Shown in pieces: positions 4,226 to 11,452 of a stretch of DNA of 64,000 nt; position 1 is the stretch's first letter; every line of letters begins with the position of its first letter. The notes below the pieces were generated by a model that saw only the letters and a program-made list of their open reading frames with translations, was not told where the DNA came from and searched no databases. The position numbers and the translations under genes were made by a program. The stretch is from Armatimonadota bacterium. GTDB taxonomy: Bacteria; Armatimonadota; Zipacnadia; Zipacnadales; UBA5352. The stretch lies in the NCBI GenBank assembly GCA_034722055.1, contig JAYENL010000314.1:26641-90640 (forward strand), given 5' to 3'.

Positions 4226-5725
4226 ATGTCAGAGGTACGCACGCGCTTCGCGCCCGCACCCACAGGGAACCTGCACGTGGGCGGCGCGCATACCGCGCTC
4301 TTCGCCTGGCTCTTCGCCCGCTACGAGGGCGGGGAGTTCGTCCTGCGCATCGAGGACACCGACGAGCTGCGCTCCACCGAGCAGTCCCTGCGCGCCATCT
4401 ACGACGGCCTGCGCTGGCTGGGTATCGACTGGGATGAGGGCCCCGATGTCGGGGGGCCCTACGCGCCCTACATCCAGTCGGAGCGGCTGGAGGTCTATGA
4501 GGAGCACATCGACCGGCTGCTCGACGCCGGCAGGGCCTACAGGTGCTTCTGCACGCCCGAGGAGCTGGAGGAGCGGCGCGAGATCATGCGCGCGCGAGGG
4601 GAGCCCCCTCGCTACGACGGGAAATGCCTGGAGCTGGGAGAGGAGCAGCGGCAGACGCTCCTGGCCGAGGGGAAGCCCTACTGCGTGCGCTTCCACGTCA
4701 AGGAGTCCGGGACCACGGTGGTGGAGGACCTGGTGCGCGGGGAGGTGTCCTTCGACAACTCGCTGATGGGCGACTTCGTCATCCGCAAGACCTCCGGCTA
4801 CCCGACATATCACCTGGCGGTGGTGGTGGACGACCACCTTATGGAGGTCAGTCACGTCATCCGCGCCGAGGAGCACCTCTCCAACACCCCCTCGCACGTG
4901 CAGCTCATGGAGGCGCTGGGCTTTGAGCGCCCGCAGTTCGCGCACCTGCCCCTGATCATGGGCACCGATCGCACGAAGCTGAGCAAGCGCCATGGAGCGG
5001 TGAACCTGCTGGACTACAGGGAGCAGGGCTTCCTGCCGGAGGCGATGCGCAACTTCCTGGCGCTCATCGGCTGGTCGCCGGGGACCGATGAGGAGATCCT
5101 CGACCTCCAGGAGCTGATCGACACCTTCACCCTCGAGGGCGTCAGCAAGTCGCCGGGGGTCTTTGACCTCGAGAAGGCCACCTGGCTGAACGGTGAGTAT
5201 CTCAAGCAGGCCGATCCGGAGTACTTGGCCGACCTCCTGGAGCCGATCCTGCGGGAGGAGGGCCTGATCGAGGAGGACCTCAGCGCCGAGCGGCGGGAGT
5301 GGCTGGTGGCGGTGGTGGACCTGATGAAGGAGCGCACCCGCCTGCTCCGGGACTTCGTGACCTGGGGCCGCTACTACTTCACCAACGACTTCCCCTACGA
5401 CAACCGGGCCCGCAAGAAGTGGCTGCGGCGGGAGGAGGTCCCCGAGCGCCTGGACATGCTGGCTGACAGGCTGGAGACGCTGGAGAGCTGGGACGTGGAC
5501 GGCATCGAGCGGGTCATCAGGGGCCTGGCCGACGACCTCGGCGTGAGCGCCGCGAAGGTCATCCACCCCTGCCGGGCGGCCGTGACGGGACAGACCATCG
5601 GGCCCAGCCTGTTCCACCTCATGGAGCTCGTCCCGCAGCGGGATGTGGTGGCGCGGCTGCGCCGGGCCGCGGAGCTGGGACGGGCGGGGAAGATGGAGCC
5701 GATCCCCGAGCAGGACGAGCAGTAG
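4226..5725 (+). CDS. gltX: Glutamyl-tRNA synthetase
   Basis: N-terminal class I HIGH motif ('PTGNLHVGGAHTALF') and KMSKS-type 'KLSKR'. The 499 aa are colinear with GltX. An 'AAAGGTGA' RBS is present. Confidence 0.95.
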   Translation: MSEVRTRFAPAPTGNLHVGGAHTALFAWLFARYEGGEFVLRIEDTDELRSTEQSLRAIYDGLRWLGIDWDEGPDVGGPYAPYIQSERLEVYEEHIDRLLDAGRAYRCFCTPEELEERREIMRARGEPPRYDGKCLELGEEQRQTLLAEGKPYCVRFHVKESGTTVVEDLVRGEVSFDNSLMGDFVIRKTSGYPTYHLAVVVDDHLMEVSHVIRAEEHLSNTPSHVQLMEALGFERPQFAHLPLIMGTDRTKLSKRHGAVNLLDYREQGFLPEAMRNFLALIGWSPGTDEEILDLQELIDTFTLEGVSKSPGVFDLEKATWLNGEYLKQADPEYLADLLEPILREEGLIEEDLSAERREWLVAVVDLMKERTRLLRDFVTWGRYYFTNDFPYDNRARKKWLRREEVPERLDMLADRLETLESWDVDGIERVIRGLADDLGVSAAKVIHPCRAAVTGQTIGPSLFHLMELVPQRDVVARLRRAAELGRAGKMEPIPEQDEQ

Positions 5726-5997
5726 CCCGCCGGCAGCATGGGCACGGCCTGCGGGCCGATGCAGACGCCGGGAAGTCGGCCTCGCCACCCCTTCCGGGCC
5801 CCAGAGCAGGAGCCGCGGCAGCATCCCACTAACCTCGCTGGCATGGTGAACATTGGGCTCATCGGCTGCGTCTATTCTGACTGAAGACACAAGAGATGTG
5901 CCGGCCACCGAAGGTTTGGTGGGGGATGCGGGTGCTGTCCCCGCCAGCACCCAAATCCCCCGCCGTTGATTCCCCCCCGATGCGGTGTGAATTCCAA

Positions 5998-6085
5998 GTA
6001 TCGGGAGAACGCGCGGGCGAGGGCGCCCGCGCCCCAATACTTACCTGGGTTGCGGGCGAGCTACCTCCACCCGACAATCTGACGC
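5998..6085 (-). repeat. Intergenic repeat element R1, copy d (mosaic and partial)
   Basis: Contains 'GCGGGCGAGGGCGCCCGCGCCCC', which is the reverse complement of the R1a tail, and 'CTGGGTTGCGGGCG...CCGACAATCTG', which is shared with R1b. Confidence 0.6.
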
Positions 6086-6108
6086 CGTACCCCCCTCGAC
6101 GCCTCCAT

Positions 6109-6137
6109 TTGACAGGCCCCGCGTGCTGTGCTAAGGT
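6109..6137 (+). promoter_or_regulatory. Candidate sigma70-type promoter (TTGACA-17bp-TAAGGT) about 250 nt upstream of cysK
   Basis: TTGACA at 6109-6114, a 17-nt spacer, then TAAGGT at 6132-6137. It is oriented toward cysK. This is an AT-rich hexamer pair within 70% GC DNA. Confidence 0.4.
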
Positions 6138-6384
6138 CTCTGGCGGTCAGTTGACAGAGTTGAGCTGATAGCCGCGCGGCCTTGCCCAGGCGGACACGCA
6201 GATGGCAGCGATCACCCGGCGCTCAGCACGGATCGAGGTGACGGGACCGAGGGTCGGCCGCGTGCGACCGCTGGGTATGATGTCGTAGCTTCACAGGGCC
6301 CCCGCCCGGCCGGGATGTGCGGCCGCTCCGGGCATCGGGGCCTGTTTGCATGTACGGGCGGACGGGCAGGGACGCGGGGAGGCG

Positions 6385-7317
6385 ATGGGCGTGAGGATCT
6401 TCGAGGACATCACCCAGACCATCGGCAACACGCCCCTGGTCCGGCTGGCGAGGCTGGACTCGGGTCTGCCCGGGCGGGTGGTGGGGAAGCTGGAGGCGTT
6501 CAATCCCGCCGGGTGCGTGAAGGAGCGCATCGGCTGGGAGATGATCGTCACCGCGGAGCGGGAGGGGCGGATCGAGCCCGACCGCACCACGATCATCGAG
6601 CCCACCAGCGGCAACACCGGGGTGGGGCTGGCGATGGTGGGGGCGGCGCGCGGCTACCGGGTGGTGCTGTGCATGCCCGAGAGCATGAGCCTGGAGCGGC
6701 GCAAGCTCCTGGCCGCCTTCGGCGCGGAGCTGGAGCTGACTCCGGCCTCCGGCGGGATGGCCTCGGCCATTGAGCGGGCGAGGGAGCTGGCGGGGGAGCT
6801 TGAGGACGCCTGGATCCCGATGCAGTTCGAGAATCCTGCCAACCCGGCGGCCCACCAGCGGACTACGGCTGAGGAGATCTGGGCGGACACGGAGGGAGCC
6901 GTGGACGCCGTGGTGGCGGGCATCGGCACCGGTGGGACGGTCACCGGGATCGCGCGCGCCCTCAAGCCCCGCAAGCAGGAGCTGCGCATCATTGGGGTGG
7001 AGCCCGCCGAGTCCGCGGTCATCTCAGGCGAGGAGCCGGGGCCGCACGGCATTCAGGGCATCGGGGCGGGCTTCATCCCGGACGTGCTGGAGGTGGCCCT
7101 GCTGGATGAGGTGGTGCAGGTGACCACCGAGGACGCAAAGGTCATGGGTCGGCGGCTGGCGGCGGAGGAGGGCATCCTGGCGGGGATCTCCTCGGGCGCC
7201 GCCGTCCACGCGGCGCTGGCGGTGGCCGCGCGGGACGAGATGCGGGAGCGGCTGATCGTGGTTATCCTGCCGGACACCGGCGAGCGCTACCTCTCGACGG
7301 ACCTGTTCGAGCGGTAA
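6385..7317 (+). CDS. cysK: Cysteine synthase A (O-acetylserine sulfhydrylase, PLP-dependent)
   Basis: Typical CysK N-terminus ('[17 protein letters not shown]'). The PLP-lysine region '[19 protein letters not shown]', 'TSGNTG' and the glycine-rich '[10 protein letters not shown]' loop are all present. ATG 6385 is preceded by 'GGGGAGG'. Confidence 0.9.
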
Positions 7318-7357
7318 GAGCTGACGCGGCTGGGTCCGGGCGGAAGGAGGTTCGGCG

Positions 7358-7510
7358 ATGCTGGGACGGATACAGCCGGAGGCCGAGGTGATGATCCGTA
7401 TGGCGATGCCCCGGCGCCCCTGGCCGGGGCGCATGCTGAGCCGTGGCGGGCGACGCATCGTGCAGATGACCCGCGTCCGGCATGGCCGATCCGAGCGGGC
7501 GCGGCTGTGA
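7358..7510 (+). CDS. Possible Met-rich 50-aa upstream ORF or leader peptide (speculative)
   Basis: A strong SD 'GGAAGGAGG' lies 7 nt before the ATG. Seven of the 50 codons are ATG, in a 70% GC background: MLGRIQPEAEVMIRMAMPRRPWPGRMLSRGGRRIVQMTRVRHGRSERARL. The ORF ends 13 nt before the probable GTG start of the downstream homocysteine-synthesis gene. Confidence 0.3.
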   Translation: MLGRIQPEAEVMIRMAMPRRPWPGRMLSRGGRRIVQMTRVRHGRSERARL

Positions 7511-7523
7511 GAGAGTGATACCG

Positions 7524-8741
7524 GTGGCGAAGACGTACGACGAGATCAACGAGAGGATCCGGCGGGGAGAGGTCGTGGTGGTCACGGCCGAGCAGATGGT
7601 TGACGTCGTCGATGAGCTGGGGGCGAGTGGGGCTGCGGAGAAGGTGGACGTGGTGACGACAGGCACCTTCGGCCCCATGTGCTCCTCGGGCGCCTTCCTC
7701 AACTTCGGCCACTCCACCCCGCGGATCAAGGTCTCGAAGGCGTGGCTGAACGAGGTGCCGGCCTACGCCGGCCTGGCTGCGGTGGACCTCTACATCGGCG
7801 CGGCGGAGGTGGCGGAGGGCGACCCCCTCAACCGGACGCATCCAGGGAGCTTCAACTACGGCGGCGGGCACGTTATCGAGGACCTTGTGGCGGGCCGGGA
7901 CGTGCGCCTGCGGGCGCGGGCCTACGGCACCGACTGCTATCCGCGGCGAGAGCTGGACACGTGGCTGAACATCGAGGACCTCAACGAGGCCTTCATGTGC
8001 AACCCGCGCAACGCCTACCAGAACTACAACGTGGCGGTCAATACCTCTGCCGACCGCGACATCTACACCTACATGGGCGTGGTCAAGAGGGACCTGGGGA
8101 GCGCCAACTACTGCTCCGCCGGCCAGCTCAGCCCCCTCCTGAACGACCCGCACTACAGAACCATCGGGGTCGGGACGCCGGTCTTCATTGGCGGCGCCCG
8201 GGGGCGCGTGTTCTGGCAGGGCACCCAGCACGACCCCACCACCCCCCGCAACGAGAGGGGCGTGCCCACCGGCGGCGGGGGCACGCTGGCCACGGTGGGG
8301 GACCTCAAGCAGATGGACCCCCGCTTCGTGGTGGGGGTGAGCATGCTCGGCTACGGCGTGTCGCTGGCGCTGGGCATCGGGACGGCGATCCCGATTCTGG
8401 ATGAGGAGATGGCGGCCTTCACCGGCGTCAGCGACGCCGACATAGTGGCCCCGATCGTGGACTACTCCCGCGATTACGGGCACAATGAGGGGGAGCCGCT
8501 GGGCCATGTGTCCTACGTGGAGCTCAAGCGCGGCCAAGTCCGGATTGAGGGCAAGGCGGTCCCTACGGCGTCGCTGTCCAGCTACGTGCGGGCGCGGGAG
8601 ATCGCGGAGACGCTCAAGTCCTGGGTCGAGGCCGGCGAGTTCCTGCTCAACGAGCCCGTGCAGGCGCTGCCCTCCGCCGAGGAGAGCGAGGGCTTTAGGA
8701 TGCTCAACTACCGGCCCGCGGCGCCGGAAGGGGATGAGTGA
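7524..8741 (+). CDS. Homocysteine biosynthesis protein of the DUF39 / MA1821 family (sulfide-dependent homocysteine formation, as described in methanogens)
   Basis: About 400 aa protein colinear with the MA1821/MJ0100 DUF39 core. It has the N-terminal '...YDEINERIRRGEVVVVTAEQMV' and Gly-rich conserved blocks. A gene for the known MA1822-type partner ferredoxin follows with an overlapping stop/start. There is an alternative in-frame ATG at 7482. Confidence 0.55.
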   Translation: MAKTYDEINERIRRGEVVVVTAEQMVDVVDELGASGAAEKVDVVTTGTFGPMCSSGAFLNFGHSTPRIKVSKAWLNEVPAYAGLAAVDLYIGAAEVAEGDPLNRTHPGSFNYGGGHVIEDLVAGRDVRLRARAYGTDCYPRRELDTWLNIEDLNEAFMCNPRNAYQNYNVAVNTSADRDIYTYMGVVKRDLGSANYCSAGQLSPLLNDPHYRTIGVGTPVFIGGARGRVFWQGTQHDPTTPRNERGVPTGGGGTLATVGDLKQMDPRFVVGVSMLGYGVSLALGIGTAIPILDEEMAAFTGVSDADIVAPIVDYSRDYGHNEGEPLGHVSYVELKRGQVRIEGKAVPTASLSSYVRAREIAETLKSWVEAGEFLLNEPVQALPSAEESEGFRMLNYRPAAPEGDE

Positions 8742-9151
8742 GGATGGCGGAGAGCAGAGTCGTGCTGCACTTCCCGAAGCACCTCCTCGACCAGCCGGTG
8801 ACCTCCACGACCGTGGAGCGCTTCAACCTGCACTTCAACATCCTGCGCGCCGACATCACCCAGGACCAGGAGGGCCTGATGGTCCTGGGCCTGGTTGGCG
8901 AGCCCGAGAACATCGAGGGCGCCATCGAGTTCATGCGCGAGCAGGGCGTGCGCGTCCAGCCGCTGGAGCAGGATGTGGTTCGCGACGATGACCGATGCAC
9001 CCACTGCGGCGCCTGCGTCGTGGTATGCCCCACCGATGCTCTGGCCATGGACCCCGACAGCCGCCAGGTCAGCTTCGATGCCGACAAGTGCGTGGCGTGC
9101 GGGATATGCGTGCCGGTCTGCCCGCCGCGGGCGATGTCGATACACTTCTGA
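8738..9151 (+). CDS. NIL-domain / 2x[4Fe-4S] ferredoxin (MA1822-like partner of the DUF39 protein)
   Basis: An N-terminal NIL-like domain of about 75 aa is followed by two CxxCxxCxxxCP motifs ('CTHCGACVVVCP', 'CVACGICVPVCP'). A GTG/ATG start overlaps the upstream stop. Confidence 0.6.
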   Translation: MRMAESRVVLHFPKHLLDQPVTSTTVERFNLHFNILRADITQDQEGLMVLGLVGEPENIEGAIEFMREQGVRVQPLEQDVVRDDDRCTHCGACVVVCPTDALAMDPDSRQVSFDADKCVACGICVPVCPPRAMSIHF

Positions 9152-9327
9152 GGGCACCTGCGAGAGATGCCTCGGCGAACGGCGGCGGGCTGGAAGCCTG
9201 CCTCACGAGGCGAGGGCAGAGAAGCAGATAAGCGGAGGACCACGAGAAACGGGGGACGAGTCTGAAGCCGCGTCCCTCCGAACGGCATCGCGGCTCCGCA
9301 GAGAGTAGGTCGGCGAGCAGTGGTCGT

Positions 9328-9744
<417 letters not shown>

Positions 9745-9904
9745 GTACAGCCGCTCCCTCCTGCGCCCGTGACACACTGCGGGTGCCCCGGGCTTAGGGG
9801 ACATCCGGTGTGCGCCGATTATATCAGAGCCCCCCTGTCGTGTCAAACTGCTCGGATTGGCGCTCGGCCCCGCTCAGGGCCTCCAGGACCGCCGCGAGGC
9901 AGTC

Positions 9905-11452
9905 CTAGGTGTCCCCCTCCGCGCCCTCCACGAGTCTGGCCGCCTCGTCGTAGCTGGACTCCACCTGCCGGTAGAGCTGCTGGTACAGCCGATGGTATCC
10001 GCGGTAGAGCTGGTGGCTGCGCTCATCCACGCGCGGGGCGTCAACGGTGCGGATGGTGGCCTCGCAGGCCTCCTCCACAGATGCGTAGAGCCCGGCGCCC
10101 ACCGCAGCCAGCAGAGCCACGCCGTAGGCCGGGCCCTCATCGACGTTGATGAGGCAGTGCGGGTAGCCGGTGACGTCGGTCTGAATCTGCCGCCACAGCC
10201 GACTGCGCGCGCCGCCGCCGGAGGCCCGAACCTCGCTGATCTGCACGCCCATCTCCTCGATGATCTCAAAGGAGTCCCTCAGCCCGTAAGCCACGCCCTC
10301 CAGCACCGCGCGGATGAGGTGGGGCTTGCCGTGGCGGAGGCTGAGGCCGAAGAACATCCCGCGGGCGTTGGGGTTGGGATAGGGCGTCCGCTCGCCGGTG
10401 AGGTAAGGGAGGAAGACCAGCCCCTCGCTGCCCACCGGTGCCTGCGCGGCCTGCTCGGTCATCAGCTCGTAGGCGTCGATGCCCATGTTGCGGGCGATCT
10501 CCACCTCCGCGTCACAGAGGGTATCACGGACCCAGCGCAGGGAGCCGCCGGCGGAGAGCATCACGCCCATGACGTGCCATCTGCCGGGCACCGCGTGGCA
10601 GAAGGTGTGAGTCCGGAGCTTCTCATCCACCCTCGGCTCGTCGAGGTGTGCGAAGACCACGCCGGAGGTGCCGGTGCTCACCGACACGACCCCCGAGCGG
10701 ACGATGCCGTTGCCCACGGCGCCGGCGGCCTGGTCGCCGCCACCGCCCACCACCGGCGTGCCCTCGGCCAGCCCCGTCAGACCGGCGGCCTCGGCGGTGA
10801 CGTGCCCGCTTACCTCGGGGGACTCGTAGACCTCCGGCAGCCAGTCGCGGGGCAGCTCCAGGCGGTCGAGGATCAGCTCCGACCAGCGCCGCCGGGGGAC
10901 GTTGAGCAGTGAGGTCCCGGACGCATCCGAGACCTCCGTGGCGTACTGGCCGGTGAGCTTCAGCCGCACGTAGTCCTTGGGCAGCAGCACCTTGCGGACG
11001 CGGGCGTAGGCCTCCGGCTCCTCGTCCCGCAGCCAGATGATCTTGGGGGCCGTGAAGCCCGTGAGCACGGGGTTGAGGGTCTCGGAGACGACCTCCTCGG
11101 CGCCCACGGCCTCGGTGATCTCGTCGCACTGGCGGGCGGTGCGCTGATCGCACCACAGTATCGCCGGCCGGATGACCTGGTCGCTCTCGTCGAGGAATAC
11201 GGACCCGTGCATCTGGCCCGAGAGGCCCACGCCGGCGATGTGCCCGGCGCGCACGCCGGACTGCTCGATGAGCGCCGTAACGCTGGCGATGGTGGCGGTC
11301 CACCAGTCGGACGGGTCCTGCTCGGCCCAGTTCGGCCTGGGGGTGGAGAGGGGGTACTCGGTGGCATCACTGGCCACCGTGGCACCATCCTCGTCGATCA
11401 GCAGCGCCCGGGTGCTGGTGGTGCCCACATCGATGCCCAGCAAGTAACTCAT
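9905..11452 (-). CDS. xylB: Xylulokinase (FGGY carbohydrate kinase family)
   Basis: 'LLGIDVGTTSTRALLID' N-terminus, an FGGY N-domain, 'GGGDQAAGAVGNG' and a C-terminal FGGY domain. About 515 aa. Confidence 0.8.
   Translation of the reverse strand: MSYLLGIDVGTTSTRALLIDEDGATVASDATEYPLSTPRPNWAEQDPSDWWTATIASVTALIEQSGVRAGHIAGVGLSGQMHGSVFLDESDQVIRPAILWCDQRTARQCDEITEAVGAEEVVSETLNPVLTGFTAPKIIWLRDEEPEAYARVRKVLLPKDYVRLKLTGQYATEVSDASGTSLLNVPRRRWSELILDRLELPRDWLPEVYESPEVSGHVTAEAAGLTGLAEGTPVVGGGGDQAAGAVGNGIVRSGVVSVSTGTSGVVFAHLDEPRVDEKLRTHTFCHAVPGRWHVMGVMLSAGGSLRWVRDTLCDAEVEIARNMGIDAYELMTEQAAQAPVGSEGLVFLPYLTGERTPYPNPNARGMFFGLSLRHGKPHLIRAVLEGVAYGLRDSFEIIEEMGVQISEVRASGGGARSRLWRQIQTDVTGYPHCLINVDEGPAYGVALLAAVGAGLYASVEEACEATIRTVDAPRVDERSHQLYRGYHRLYQQLYRQVESSYDEAARLVEGAEGDT

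Follow-up and report, generated by a model that had tools for sequence, protein, structure and literature searches.

A methionine-codon leader with an adjoining hairpin precedes the homocysteine biosynthesis gene of many Armatimonadota: a candidate attenuator without a terminator

Results

A Met-rich leader ORF lies upstream of HcyBio

We analysed a stretch of 64,000 nucleotides (nt) from an Armatimonadota bacterium (contig JAYENL010000314.1, positions 26,641 to 90,640 of the forward strand; hereafter the window, in whose coordinates all positions are given), and in particular a short methionine (Met)-rich open reading frame (ORF) located between a cysK-like gene and a gene of the HcyBio/DUF39 family (Table 1). 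By its Pfam family assignment HcyBio yields homocysteine, the direct precursor of Met, and a gene for a NIL-ferredoxin partner adjoins its 3' side in every locus examined. In the window the GTG start of the NIL-ferredoxin gene overlaps the HcyBio stop codon (GTGA, 8738-8741), and the two genes are therefore likely to be translationally coupled.

Table 1. Features of the HcyBio locus and its surroundings in the window.
Feature	Position	Strand	Remarks
cysK-like pyridoxal phosphate (PLP) enzyme gene (PALP)	6385..7317	+	Pfam PALP E = 3e-71; upstream operon gene in the window's clade
Leader Shine-Dalgarno (SD) sequence GGAAGGAGG	7342-7350	+	spacer from AGGAGG to ATG 7358 of 7 nt
Leader ORF MLGRIQPEAEVMIRMAMPRRPWPGRMLSRGGRRIVQMTRVRHGRSERARL	7358-7510	+	50 codons; TGA stop 7508-7510
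Met-codon cluster, with SD-like GAGGUGAU before it	7384..7408	+	E-V-M12-I-R-M15-A-M17; ATGs at 7391, 7400 and 7406
Hairpin P1, GCGCCCC-UGGCC-GGGGCGC	7414..7432	+	-14.8 kcal/mol
HcyBio ribosome-binding region GAGAGAGUGAU	7509..7519	+	overlaps the leader stop codon
HcyBio/DUF39 gene (L-aspartate-semialdehyde sulfurtransferase family)	7524..8741	+	GTG start; Pfam HcyBio E = 2e-148
NIL-ferredoxin partner gene	8738..9151	+	Pfam NIL and Fer4
Single-domain response regulator gene	9328-9846	-	downstream, opposite strand
FGGY sugar kinase gene	9905-11452	-	downstream, opposite strand

The original prediction, made from the letters of the window, held that the short ORF is a Met-codon leader placed before a Met-pathway gene. 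Its conservation in orthologous loci and the start codon assigned to HcyBio, both described below, support this proposal, in which the sensing of Met-tRNA would follow by analogy with known leaders. The ORF and its SD are as first described; the count of seven ATG codons in 50 has to be lowered to six in frame (codons 1, 12, 15, 17, 26 and 37), the other one, ATG 7482, being the seventh ATG trinucleotide of the intergenic region and lying in a different frame. Given a Met share of 1.7% in five neighbouring genes, the probability of at least five internal Met in 49 codons is ~0.0015 and that of three Met within six codons ~0.002; the claimed excess of Met is thus real, but only three of the internal Mets are conserved. 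Within the window the leader is the sole short ORF with both a strong SD and a Met cluster, and no further Met-cluster leader was found elsewhere in the 64 kb. A 50-aa peptide 100% identical to it is annotated as a 'hypothetical protein' in an NCBI Armatimonadota metagenome-assembled genome (MAG; P0126).

The leader accompanies HcyBio in Armatimonadota

Among 18 Armatimonadota loci chosen by HcyBio similarity alone, the leader was present upstream of the gene in 14 (seven of ten from a genome scan and seven of eight from new protein look-ups); the loci without it are L006/L035, L008 and L125. The block common to the HcyBio upstream regions of this phylum reads GUG-GUG-AUG-nnn-AUG-GSN-AUG-CSN-SRG-CGY-CCC. 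We also scanned metagenomes by DNA pattern alone, blind to the downstream gene, and obtained 83 stretches, 14 of them leader-like. HcyBio follows 96-156 nt after the motif in all 13 leader-like hits that have downstream sequence, while the other pattern matches are due to chance or to a Met/Pro-rich repeat protein. The Met-rich ORF expected of orthologous loci by the original prediction is therefore found by both routes. Moreover, when 5.8 billion proteins were searched with the leader profile, the only matches were 14 small 'hypothetical proteins', all of the leader family, and both of those that were looked up (2/14) precede HcyBio and NIL-ferredoxin genes.

The gene upstream of the leader is cysK in one clade and usually an AbpE-like gene in the other, where one locus has a Thi4-like gene; since it differs between clades, the leader belongs to HcyBio and not to cysK. 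In the opposite direction, no Met cluster was detected in any frame within 400 nt upstream in 26 of the 27 HcyBio loci that lack the leader motif (24 from other phyla and the three leaderless Armatimonadota loci). These results show that the association of the leader with HcyBio is exclusive.

The Met/Pro-rich matches to the DNA pattern form a distinct set, unrelated to the leader. They are tandem-repeat proteins of 340-390 aa (in which, for example, MAMPQRPEMPQMD recurs many times), encoded on contigs L039, L042, L051, L057, L063, L073, L077, L085, L087 and L088 and further on L092, L094, L107, L117 and L118.

Some HcyBio loci of other phyla carry S-adenosylmethionine (SAM) riboswitches instead. 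In L026, from an Acidaminobacter MAG, a SAM-I riboswitch lies directly upstream of HcyBio (2312-2413), with a second copy upstream at 1633-1734; in L024, L028 and L029, from Fermentibacteria and Hyd24-12 MAGs, SAM-I/IV riboswitches are found ~1 kb upstream of HcyBio, at ~1420-1560. Feedback from the Met/SAM pool is thus the normal logic for a HcyBio gene. L024 also has a cobalamin riboswitch, located downstream on the opposite strand.

The leader ORF bears marks of translation

A strong AGGAGG-type SD lies 5-7 nt ahead of an in-frame ATG in nearly every leader-bearing locus, weaker SD-like sequences being found in the divergent L128 and L130. In all of ~30 loci, the ATG that follows the SD-type sequence shares its frame with the Met cluster, and no stop codon intervenes. 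Between the start codon and the cluster, the 23 aligned leaders have 11-14 codons that vary freely; in L130 this stretch is 25 codons long. As a family, the leaders share the consensus (V)V-M-x-M-[A/G]-M-[P/R]-x-R-P, followed by a variable tail, for a total length of 32-68 codons. In the numbering of the window, none of the 23 aligned leaders departs from M15 or M17, and M-[A/G]-M occurs in all leader loci seen, including L128 and L130. The only conserved Mets of the window leader are M1, M12, M15 and M17; its closest relative, L001, already lacks M26 and M37.

The manner in which this sequence varies is that of a coding region. Leader indels are multiples of 3, the x codon is free, and the M-I-R-M-A-M of the window's subclade results from an in-frame 3-nt insertion. 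The Ala codon between the Mets may be GCG, GCC or GCU, and over codons 1-21 the window and L002 differ by six synonymous and two nonsynonymous codon changes. Taken together, the in-frame and stop-free SD and ATG, the 3-nt indel, the free x codon and the synonymous variation at Ala and other codons indicate that the leader ORF is translated. As in classical leaders, the N-terminus changes freely in other subclades, and the C-terminal part is variable as well. Conservation is focused on three Met codons within 5-6 codons (four in some lineages), and L041/L122 (M-V-M-R-M-A-M), L123 and L078 have acquired further Met codons next to the cluster.

It is exceedingly unlikely that we are dealing with a chance ORF or with a small protein that has a function of its own. 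Open frames of 50 codons are admittedly common at 70% GC, where shuffled sequences remain open in 40-98% of cases over the relevant stretch, and some MAG annotations list the peptide as a hypothetical protein. However, the conservation of SD, frame, Met cluster and hairpin across ~30 loci excludes chance, and a functional folded protein is hard to reconcile with a length of 32-68 aa, a C-terminal two thirds and most of an N-terminus that are unconserved, and the lack of any Pfam match for the peptide.

A compensated hairpin starts 5 nt past the Met cluster

The Met cluster is followed by a hairpin, P1, which starts 5 nt past the last AUG of the cluster in every locus examined. Its 5' arm is coding: in the window it comprises the last base of codon 19 and the codons of Arg20 and Pro21. 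Over 21 sequences, 98.5% of the P1 alignment cells are paired, as opposed to 34-58% in slid controls, and the variable pair 33-63 is UA in 12, CG in 5 and UG in 4 sequences, but never CA. Compensated variants occur in L121, L123, L128, L131 and L132; the codons of the 5' arm have changed to Arg-Ser in L121, Arg-Leu in L123 and L132 and Arg-Arg in L128, each time with compensation in the 3' arm, which is read in differing frames among loci. In L130, where the leader reads M-A-M-A-M-R-stop, a different GC hairpin (GGGCC/GGCCC) occupies the same 5-nt position. Because the pairing is kept while the encoded residues change, the Met codons and the hairpin geometry are, judging from the alignments, what selection keeps, and Arg-Pro is a by-product. 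The original prediction had missed P1, although it raised the question of a conserved RNA structure; one such helix is present, 5 nt after the last Met codon, and no statistically supported second one was found.

Could the whole element act as RNA, its translation being incidental? It might be a new riboswitch, or a site at which a TRAP- or HutP-like protein reads spaced NUG triplets by the hairpin. In its favour, selection on P1 acts at the RNA level, the triplets of GUG-GUG-AUG-nnn-AUG-nnn-AUG form an array with a period of 6 nt, and riboswitches are used by some orthologues elsewhere. Nevertheless, we consider this very unlikely. At gathering score no Rfam family, SAM riboswitches included, was found in the whole window, and even at E <= 10 the region 7000-7900 gave only chance-level matches to microRNA-like, long non-coding and small nucleolar RNAs and a weak L31-leader match. 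The P1 loop ranges from 4 nt up to an inserted sub-hairpin, and such variability in sequence and length does not suit a ligand pocket. A second conserved helix or a pseudoknot partner was not found, and the in-frame SD and ATG, the 3-nt indels and the synonymous Ala variation are not needed by an element that works as RNA alone.

Two further proposals concerning P1 and its surroundings did not hold. Arg-Pro as an arrest motif was rejected, as Ser, Leu or Arg takes the place of Pro in some loci while the hairpin is compensated, and an extension of P1 through AUGGC/GCCAU pairing was dropped, as it is confined to one sub-branch.

The leader is read into the start region of HcyBio

The position of the HcyBio start is critical to the layout, and the original prediction had named a start at ATG 7482 as incompatible with the leader. 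Several observations speak for GTG 7524. Residues 1-3 of the GTG form are where the alignment starts for nearly all of 37 related loci of the genome collection, the exceptions being two truncated loci, and close HcyBio homologues are mostly 404-408 aa long. The Pfam HcyBio domain starts at residue 31 of the ATG-7482 form, ATG 7482 has no SD, and its 14 additional residues have no counterpart beyond the pair formed by the window and L001. A start at GTG 7524, not at ATG 7482, is thus supported by the alignments, the homologue lengths and the Pfam position. The ORF accordingly ends, as predicted, 13 nt before the GTG, whereas the gap between cysK and HcyBio amounts to 206 nt, the 164 bp first given being correct for ATG 7482 only.

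HcyBio has often been called from an upstream in-frame ATG inside the leader (P0001, 419 aa; P0003, P0011 and P0013, 423-433 aa), and the leader itself is called by gene callers only sometimes (e.g. L126, at 2327-2494, L131 and L132). The HcyBio starts of the window's clade are thus probably mis-annotated in public records, and taking the leader into account puts the start of the gene family right, the products of 419-433 aa being gene-caller extensions.

The leader does not stop where a classical leader would, shortly after the codons, a point that the original prediction had also missed. It runs on for 21-47 codons past the cluster, into the HcyBio start region, and its stop lies anywhere from 29 nt past the HcyBio start to 42 nt before it; for 19 among 20 lineage representatives, the range is 29 nt past to 26 nt before. 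L130 alone has its stop directly behind the cluster, ~100 nt ahead of HcyBio. The chance that the leader is kept open to <30 nt from the HcyBio start in 19/20 representatives is ~10^-2.7 as a product that assumes independence. The stop-to-start gap is 0 in L131 (UAA-UUG), -1 in L128 (UAGUG), -8 in five loci (AUGGCUAA), 5-6 nt in seven loci and 13 nt in the window. Leader genes that end ~10-11 bp before structural genes are reported to be in excess (Korolev et al. 2016, PMC4833913).

The ribosome-binding site (RBS) that the leader stop overlaps is itself peculiar. Among the 16 aligned clade-A loci, only L121 departs from GAGAGAGUGAU, and the start codon after it is mostly GUG, whereas an ordinary GGAGG and ATG are found in HcyBio genes that lack a leader. 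In clade B the leader is kept, though HcyBio there has a strong SD of its own and mostly ATG starts.

One may ask whether the leader is just a constitutive coupling device, an ORF that only delivers ribosomes to a poor HcyBio start, by termination and reinitiation as has been proposed for many leader genes, and in which cluster and hairpin fix the flux and sense nothing. This would fit the recurrent juxtaposition of stop and start, the excess reported by Korolev et al. 2016 (PMC4833913) and the failure to find a second regulatory structure (see below). We regard it as distinctly unlikely, since it leaves unexplained why an invariant Met cluster precedes a Met-pathway gene, why Met codons are gained, why their spacing to a compensated hairpin is fixed at 5 nt, and why clade B retains the leader despite HcyBio's own strong SD.

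The universal 3' tail of 16S rRNA includes GAUCACC. Two conserved sequences of the locus would be complementary to it if the Armatimonadota tail is of this form: GGUGAU (7386-7391), formed by the Val-Met codons of the leader, and GUGAU (7514-7519) in the HcyBio RBS, which is GUGAUC in most relatives. The SD-like sequence inside the leader ORF, before the Met cluster, could hold elongating ribosomes or permit internal initiation at M15.

A terminator-free attenuator as a working model

What might such a leader do? As the best-supported reading we propose, with about even confidence, that it is a translated, ribosome-mediated attenuator without a terminator, which ties the expression of HcyBio and NIL-ferredoxin to the supply of Met. 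This proposal is based on the cognate codons, the strong leader RBS, a hairpin placed where a stalled ribosome would meet it, the exclusive association with a Met gene and the feedback exerted by SAM riboswitches on HcyBio elsewhere. That Met-tRNA would be the signal we infer from the anatomy of the leader and from analogy, and the direction of the response and the controlled step are likewise part of the model.

In the model, ribosomes would load at the strong SD and reach M-x-M-[A/G]-M at codons 12-17. When charged elongator tRNA-Met is scarce, they would stall at the Met cluster. A ribosome of standard footprint that has the last AUG in its A site would reach with its front edge into the first pairs of P1; stalled there, it would melt P1 and block the stream of leader ribosomes. 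When Met is ample, ribosomes would cross P1, translate the remainder of the leader, and run over the HcyBio RBS or terminate on it. A shortage of Met-tRNA would then lead to derepression, stalling raising HcyBio expression; this direction is suggested by the logic of known codon-run leaders and by the SAM riboswitches that control HcyBio elsewhere. The output would be post-transcriptional: it would affect how readily ribosomes reach the HcyBio start or initiate there, or it would lie in protection from Rho or RNases, and it would not involve an intrinsic terminator.

Indeed, no terminator-like site or promoter was found in 5700-9400, so that the terminator of classical attenuators is missing here, and no U-tract follows P1 or any later hairpin. 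The original prediction, which saw no room for a classical terminator or antiterminator, was right in this respect. Over 7318-7540 the minimum free energy is no better than that of shuffled sequences (z = -0.48).

Several results weigh against the attenuator model. RNAalifold returned no consensus second helix, the leader from downstream of P1 to the RBS showed no structure beyond that of dinucleotide shuffles (mean z = -0.06), and alternative pairings gave null results in duplex tests (z ~ -0.3). When a ribosome was parked on the Met cluster by constraint folding in 20 loci, no consistent change in the accessibility of the HcyBio RBS was seen; its mean predicted value was 0.48 for free and 0.46 for stalled RNA, in a setting, RNA of 70% GC, in which thermodynamic prediction is weak evidence either way. 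At the peptide level, the small residue kept between the invariant Mets and the purifying selection on the N-terminus in the window's subclade hint at some constraint on the peptide itself. Last, the juxtaposition of leader stop and HcyBio start is, as an arrangement of sequence, the classic layout of positive translational coupling, and most HcyBio genes of the window's clade start at GUG behind an unusual RBS. Under positive coupling, stalling would lower, not raise, HcyBio synthesis. Its feedback logic would then be rescued only by stalling at high Met or SAM, unless the leader is a mere delivery device.

The first of these two ways out amounts to an arrest peptide that senses Met, SAM or homocysteine, combined with positive coupling. 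High ligand would arrest the ribosome on V-M-x-M-[A/G]-M, with the help of P1 at the mRNA entrance, and the arrest would prevent reinitiation at the weak HcyBio start; at low ligand, run-through would allow HcyBio to be made. This feedback is sensible under coupling, and it would make use of a leader that stops at or on the HcyBio start in 19/20 representatives and stays open beyond chance (~10^-2.7), and of clade-A HcyBio genes that mostly have GUG and a non-canonical RBS where leaderless genes have GGAGG and ATG. The invariance of M-[A/G]-M, always with a small residue between the Mets, and the constant distance of 11-14 codons from the start codon to the motif also speak for it. However, conservation is poor beyond two Mets and the small residue, with (V)V preceding them in most leaders and an N-terminus that is free in most subclades, and the cluster is followed by variable residues (P/R, any, R, then P/S/L/R), whose conservation tracks the hairpin and not the peptide. 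In L130, moreover, the stop right after the cluster, ~100 nt from HcyBio, indicates that coupling is not universal, and the gains of extra Met codons better match codon sensing. It also counts against this alternative that we know of no bacterial arrest peptide that senses Met or SAM. On balance, we find it unlikely.

The specific claim that nascent V-M-x-M-[A/G]-M, with P1 as a brake, constitutes a bacterial arrest peptide that senses Met, SAM or homocysteine and switches off a coupled HcyBio gene is in our eyes rather unlikely. If it were true, plant CGS1/MTO1 would have a counterpart among prokaryotes, and the leader would be the first small-molecule-sensing arrest peptide for the Met/SAM pool in a bacterium.

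Three other schemes were considered and abandoned. A trp-like arrangement of 1:2, 2:3 and 3:4 pairings, with an 'H2' hairpin before the RBS GCGUCC/GGACGC arms in common with P1 and a GCGUCC repeat that could pair with the P1 3' arm, was dropped because the RNAalifold, shuffle, duplex and parked-ribosome tests were all null. A 'CAUCAY...CAGGCGC' box had seemed independent of frame, and turned out to be a subclade feature present in only ~11/27 loci. Last, a frameshift into the HcyBio frame at hungry codons would meet a stop in that frame at ~7437 in the window, and the frame relations vary among loci.

Discussion

The attenuator model places the Armatimonadota leader close to the classical attenuators, namely trpL, hisL, leuL, thrL, pheL and ilvL of proteobacteria and the actinobacterial trp leader. 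As in these, an efficiently initiated short upstream ORF carries a cluster of cognate codons just before a hairpin that a stalled ribosome would invade. Unlike in these, the amino acid is Met, there is neither a U-tract terminator nor a supported antiterminator, and, except in L130, the leader goes on for another 21-47 codons until it reaches the regulated start.

The closest experimentally characterised relative is the polycysteine small ORF (sORF) of mycobacteria, described as a translational attenuator without a terminator (Canestrari et al., bioRxiv 10.1101/834739). In both cases a codon-rich small ORF precedes genes of the matching sulfur amino-acid pathway, no terminator is present, and stalling is proposed to control translation. 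The two differ in their architecture, however: the Cys tract pairs with the downstream SD, the sORF ends right after the tract and the ORFs are leaderless, whereas in the Armatimonadota element no support was obtained for pairing of the Met region with the HcyBio RBS, the ORF reaches the HcyBio start, a local hairpin lies 5 nt past the cluster and the SD is strong.

Other stalling systems share single aspects with the leader. In ermCL/cat-86 and SecM/MifM, a ribosome stalled in an upstream ORF alters initiation at the next gene without a terminator, but there the stall occurs ~20-40 nt from an SD-containing hairpin, whereas here the presumed stall site is ~100-130 nt from the HcyBio start and P1 contains no SD. 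In TnaC, SpeFL, CGS1/MTO1 and MAGDIS, the upstream ORF of AdoMetDC, a metabolic gene is under the control of a peptide, upstream or N-terminal, that carries a conserved motif, and CGS1 is a precedent for sensing of the Met/SAM pool via the nascent chain. Those peptides have many conserved residues and bind ligand in the exit tunnel, whereas only M-[A/G]-M is invariant here, its flanks follow RNA pairing, and there is no sequence similarity to them. Finally, SAM riboswitches (SAM-I and SAM-I/IV) occupy the same position before HcyBio operons in other phyla, presumably for the same purpose; unlike them, the element of the window is translated, consists of a single simple hairpin and matches no SAM model.

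SAM riboswitches, Met T-boxes and repressor proteins are known to regulate the biosynthesis of Met. No Met leader peptide or attenuator was described in the full-text literature that we searched, and a systematic survey of Actinobacteria, in which the S-box is mentioned, reported no RNA-level element for Met operons (PMC1262725). The principle proposed here is itself familiar; what is new is Met as the leader amino acid and the phylum, and the architecture is unusual in its lack of a terminator, the hairpin spaced by 5 nt and the reading of the leader into the regulated start. If Met-tRNA is indeed sensed, ribosome-mediated attenuation would extend to another amino acid, in the little-studied Armatimonadota, and to a terminator-free layout whose leader is translated as far as the start of the gene under control. 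The leader would then offer a compact, testable system of ~170 nt for the interplay of a stalled ribosome, a nearby hairpin and translational coupling.

Neighbouring genes and a conserved block upstream of cysK

The likely start of cysK in the window is ATG 6385, the ORF as listed beginning at TTG 6346; homologous upstream genes encode 306-314 aa. The order gltX / cysK / leader / HcyBio / NIL-ferredoxin / response regulator / FGGY kinase is kept in the window's clade.

Between gltX, which ends at 5725, and ATG 6385 of cysK lies a gap of ~660 nt, in which a 55-nt block at 5912-5967 is conserved. The block is shared by seven loci, with ~92% identity (L002, L003, L007, L122, L124 and L126; 80% in L001); the HcyBio proteins of the loci that share it are only ~75-85% identical to that of the window. 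It is not a tRNA and matches no Rfam family besides a chance microRNA-like match. As it folds into a long GC hairpin (GGGGGAUGCGGGUGCUG...CAGCACCCAAAUCCCCC, at ~5922-5959), the block may be an undescribed RNA element or the terminator of gltX.

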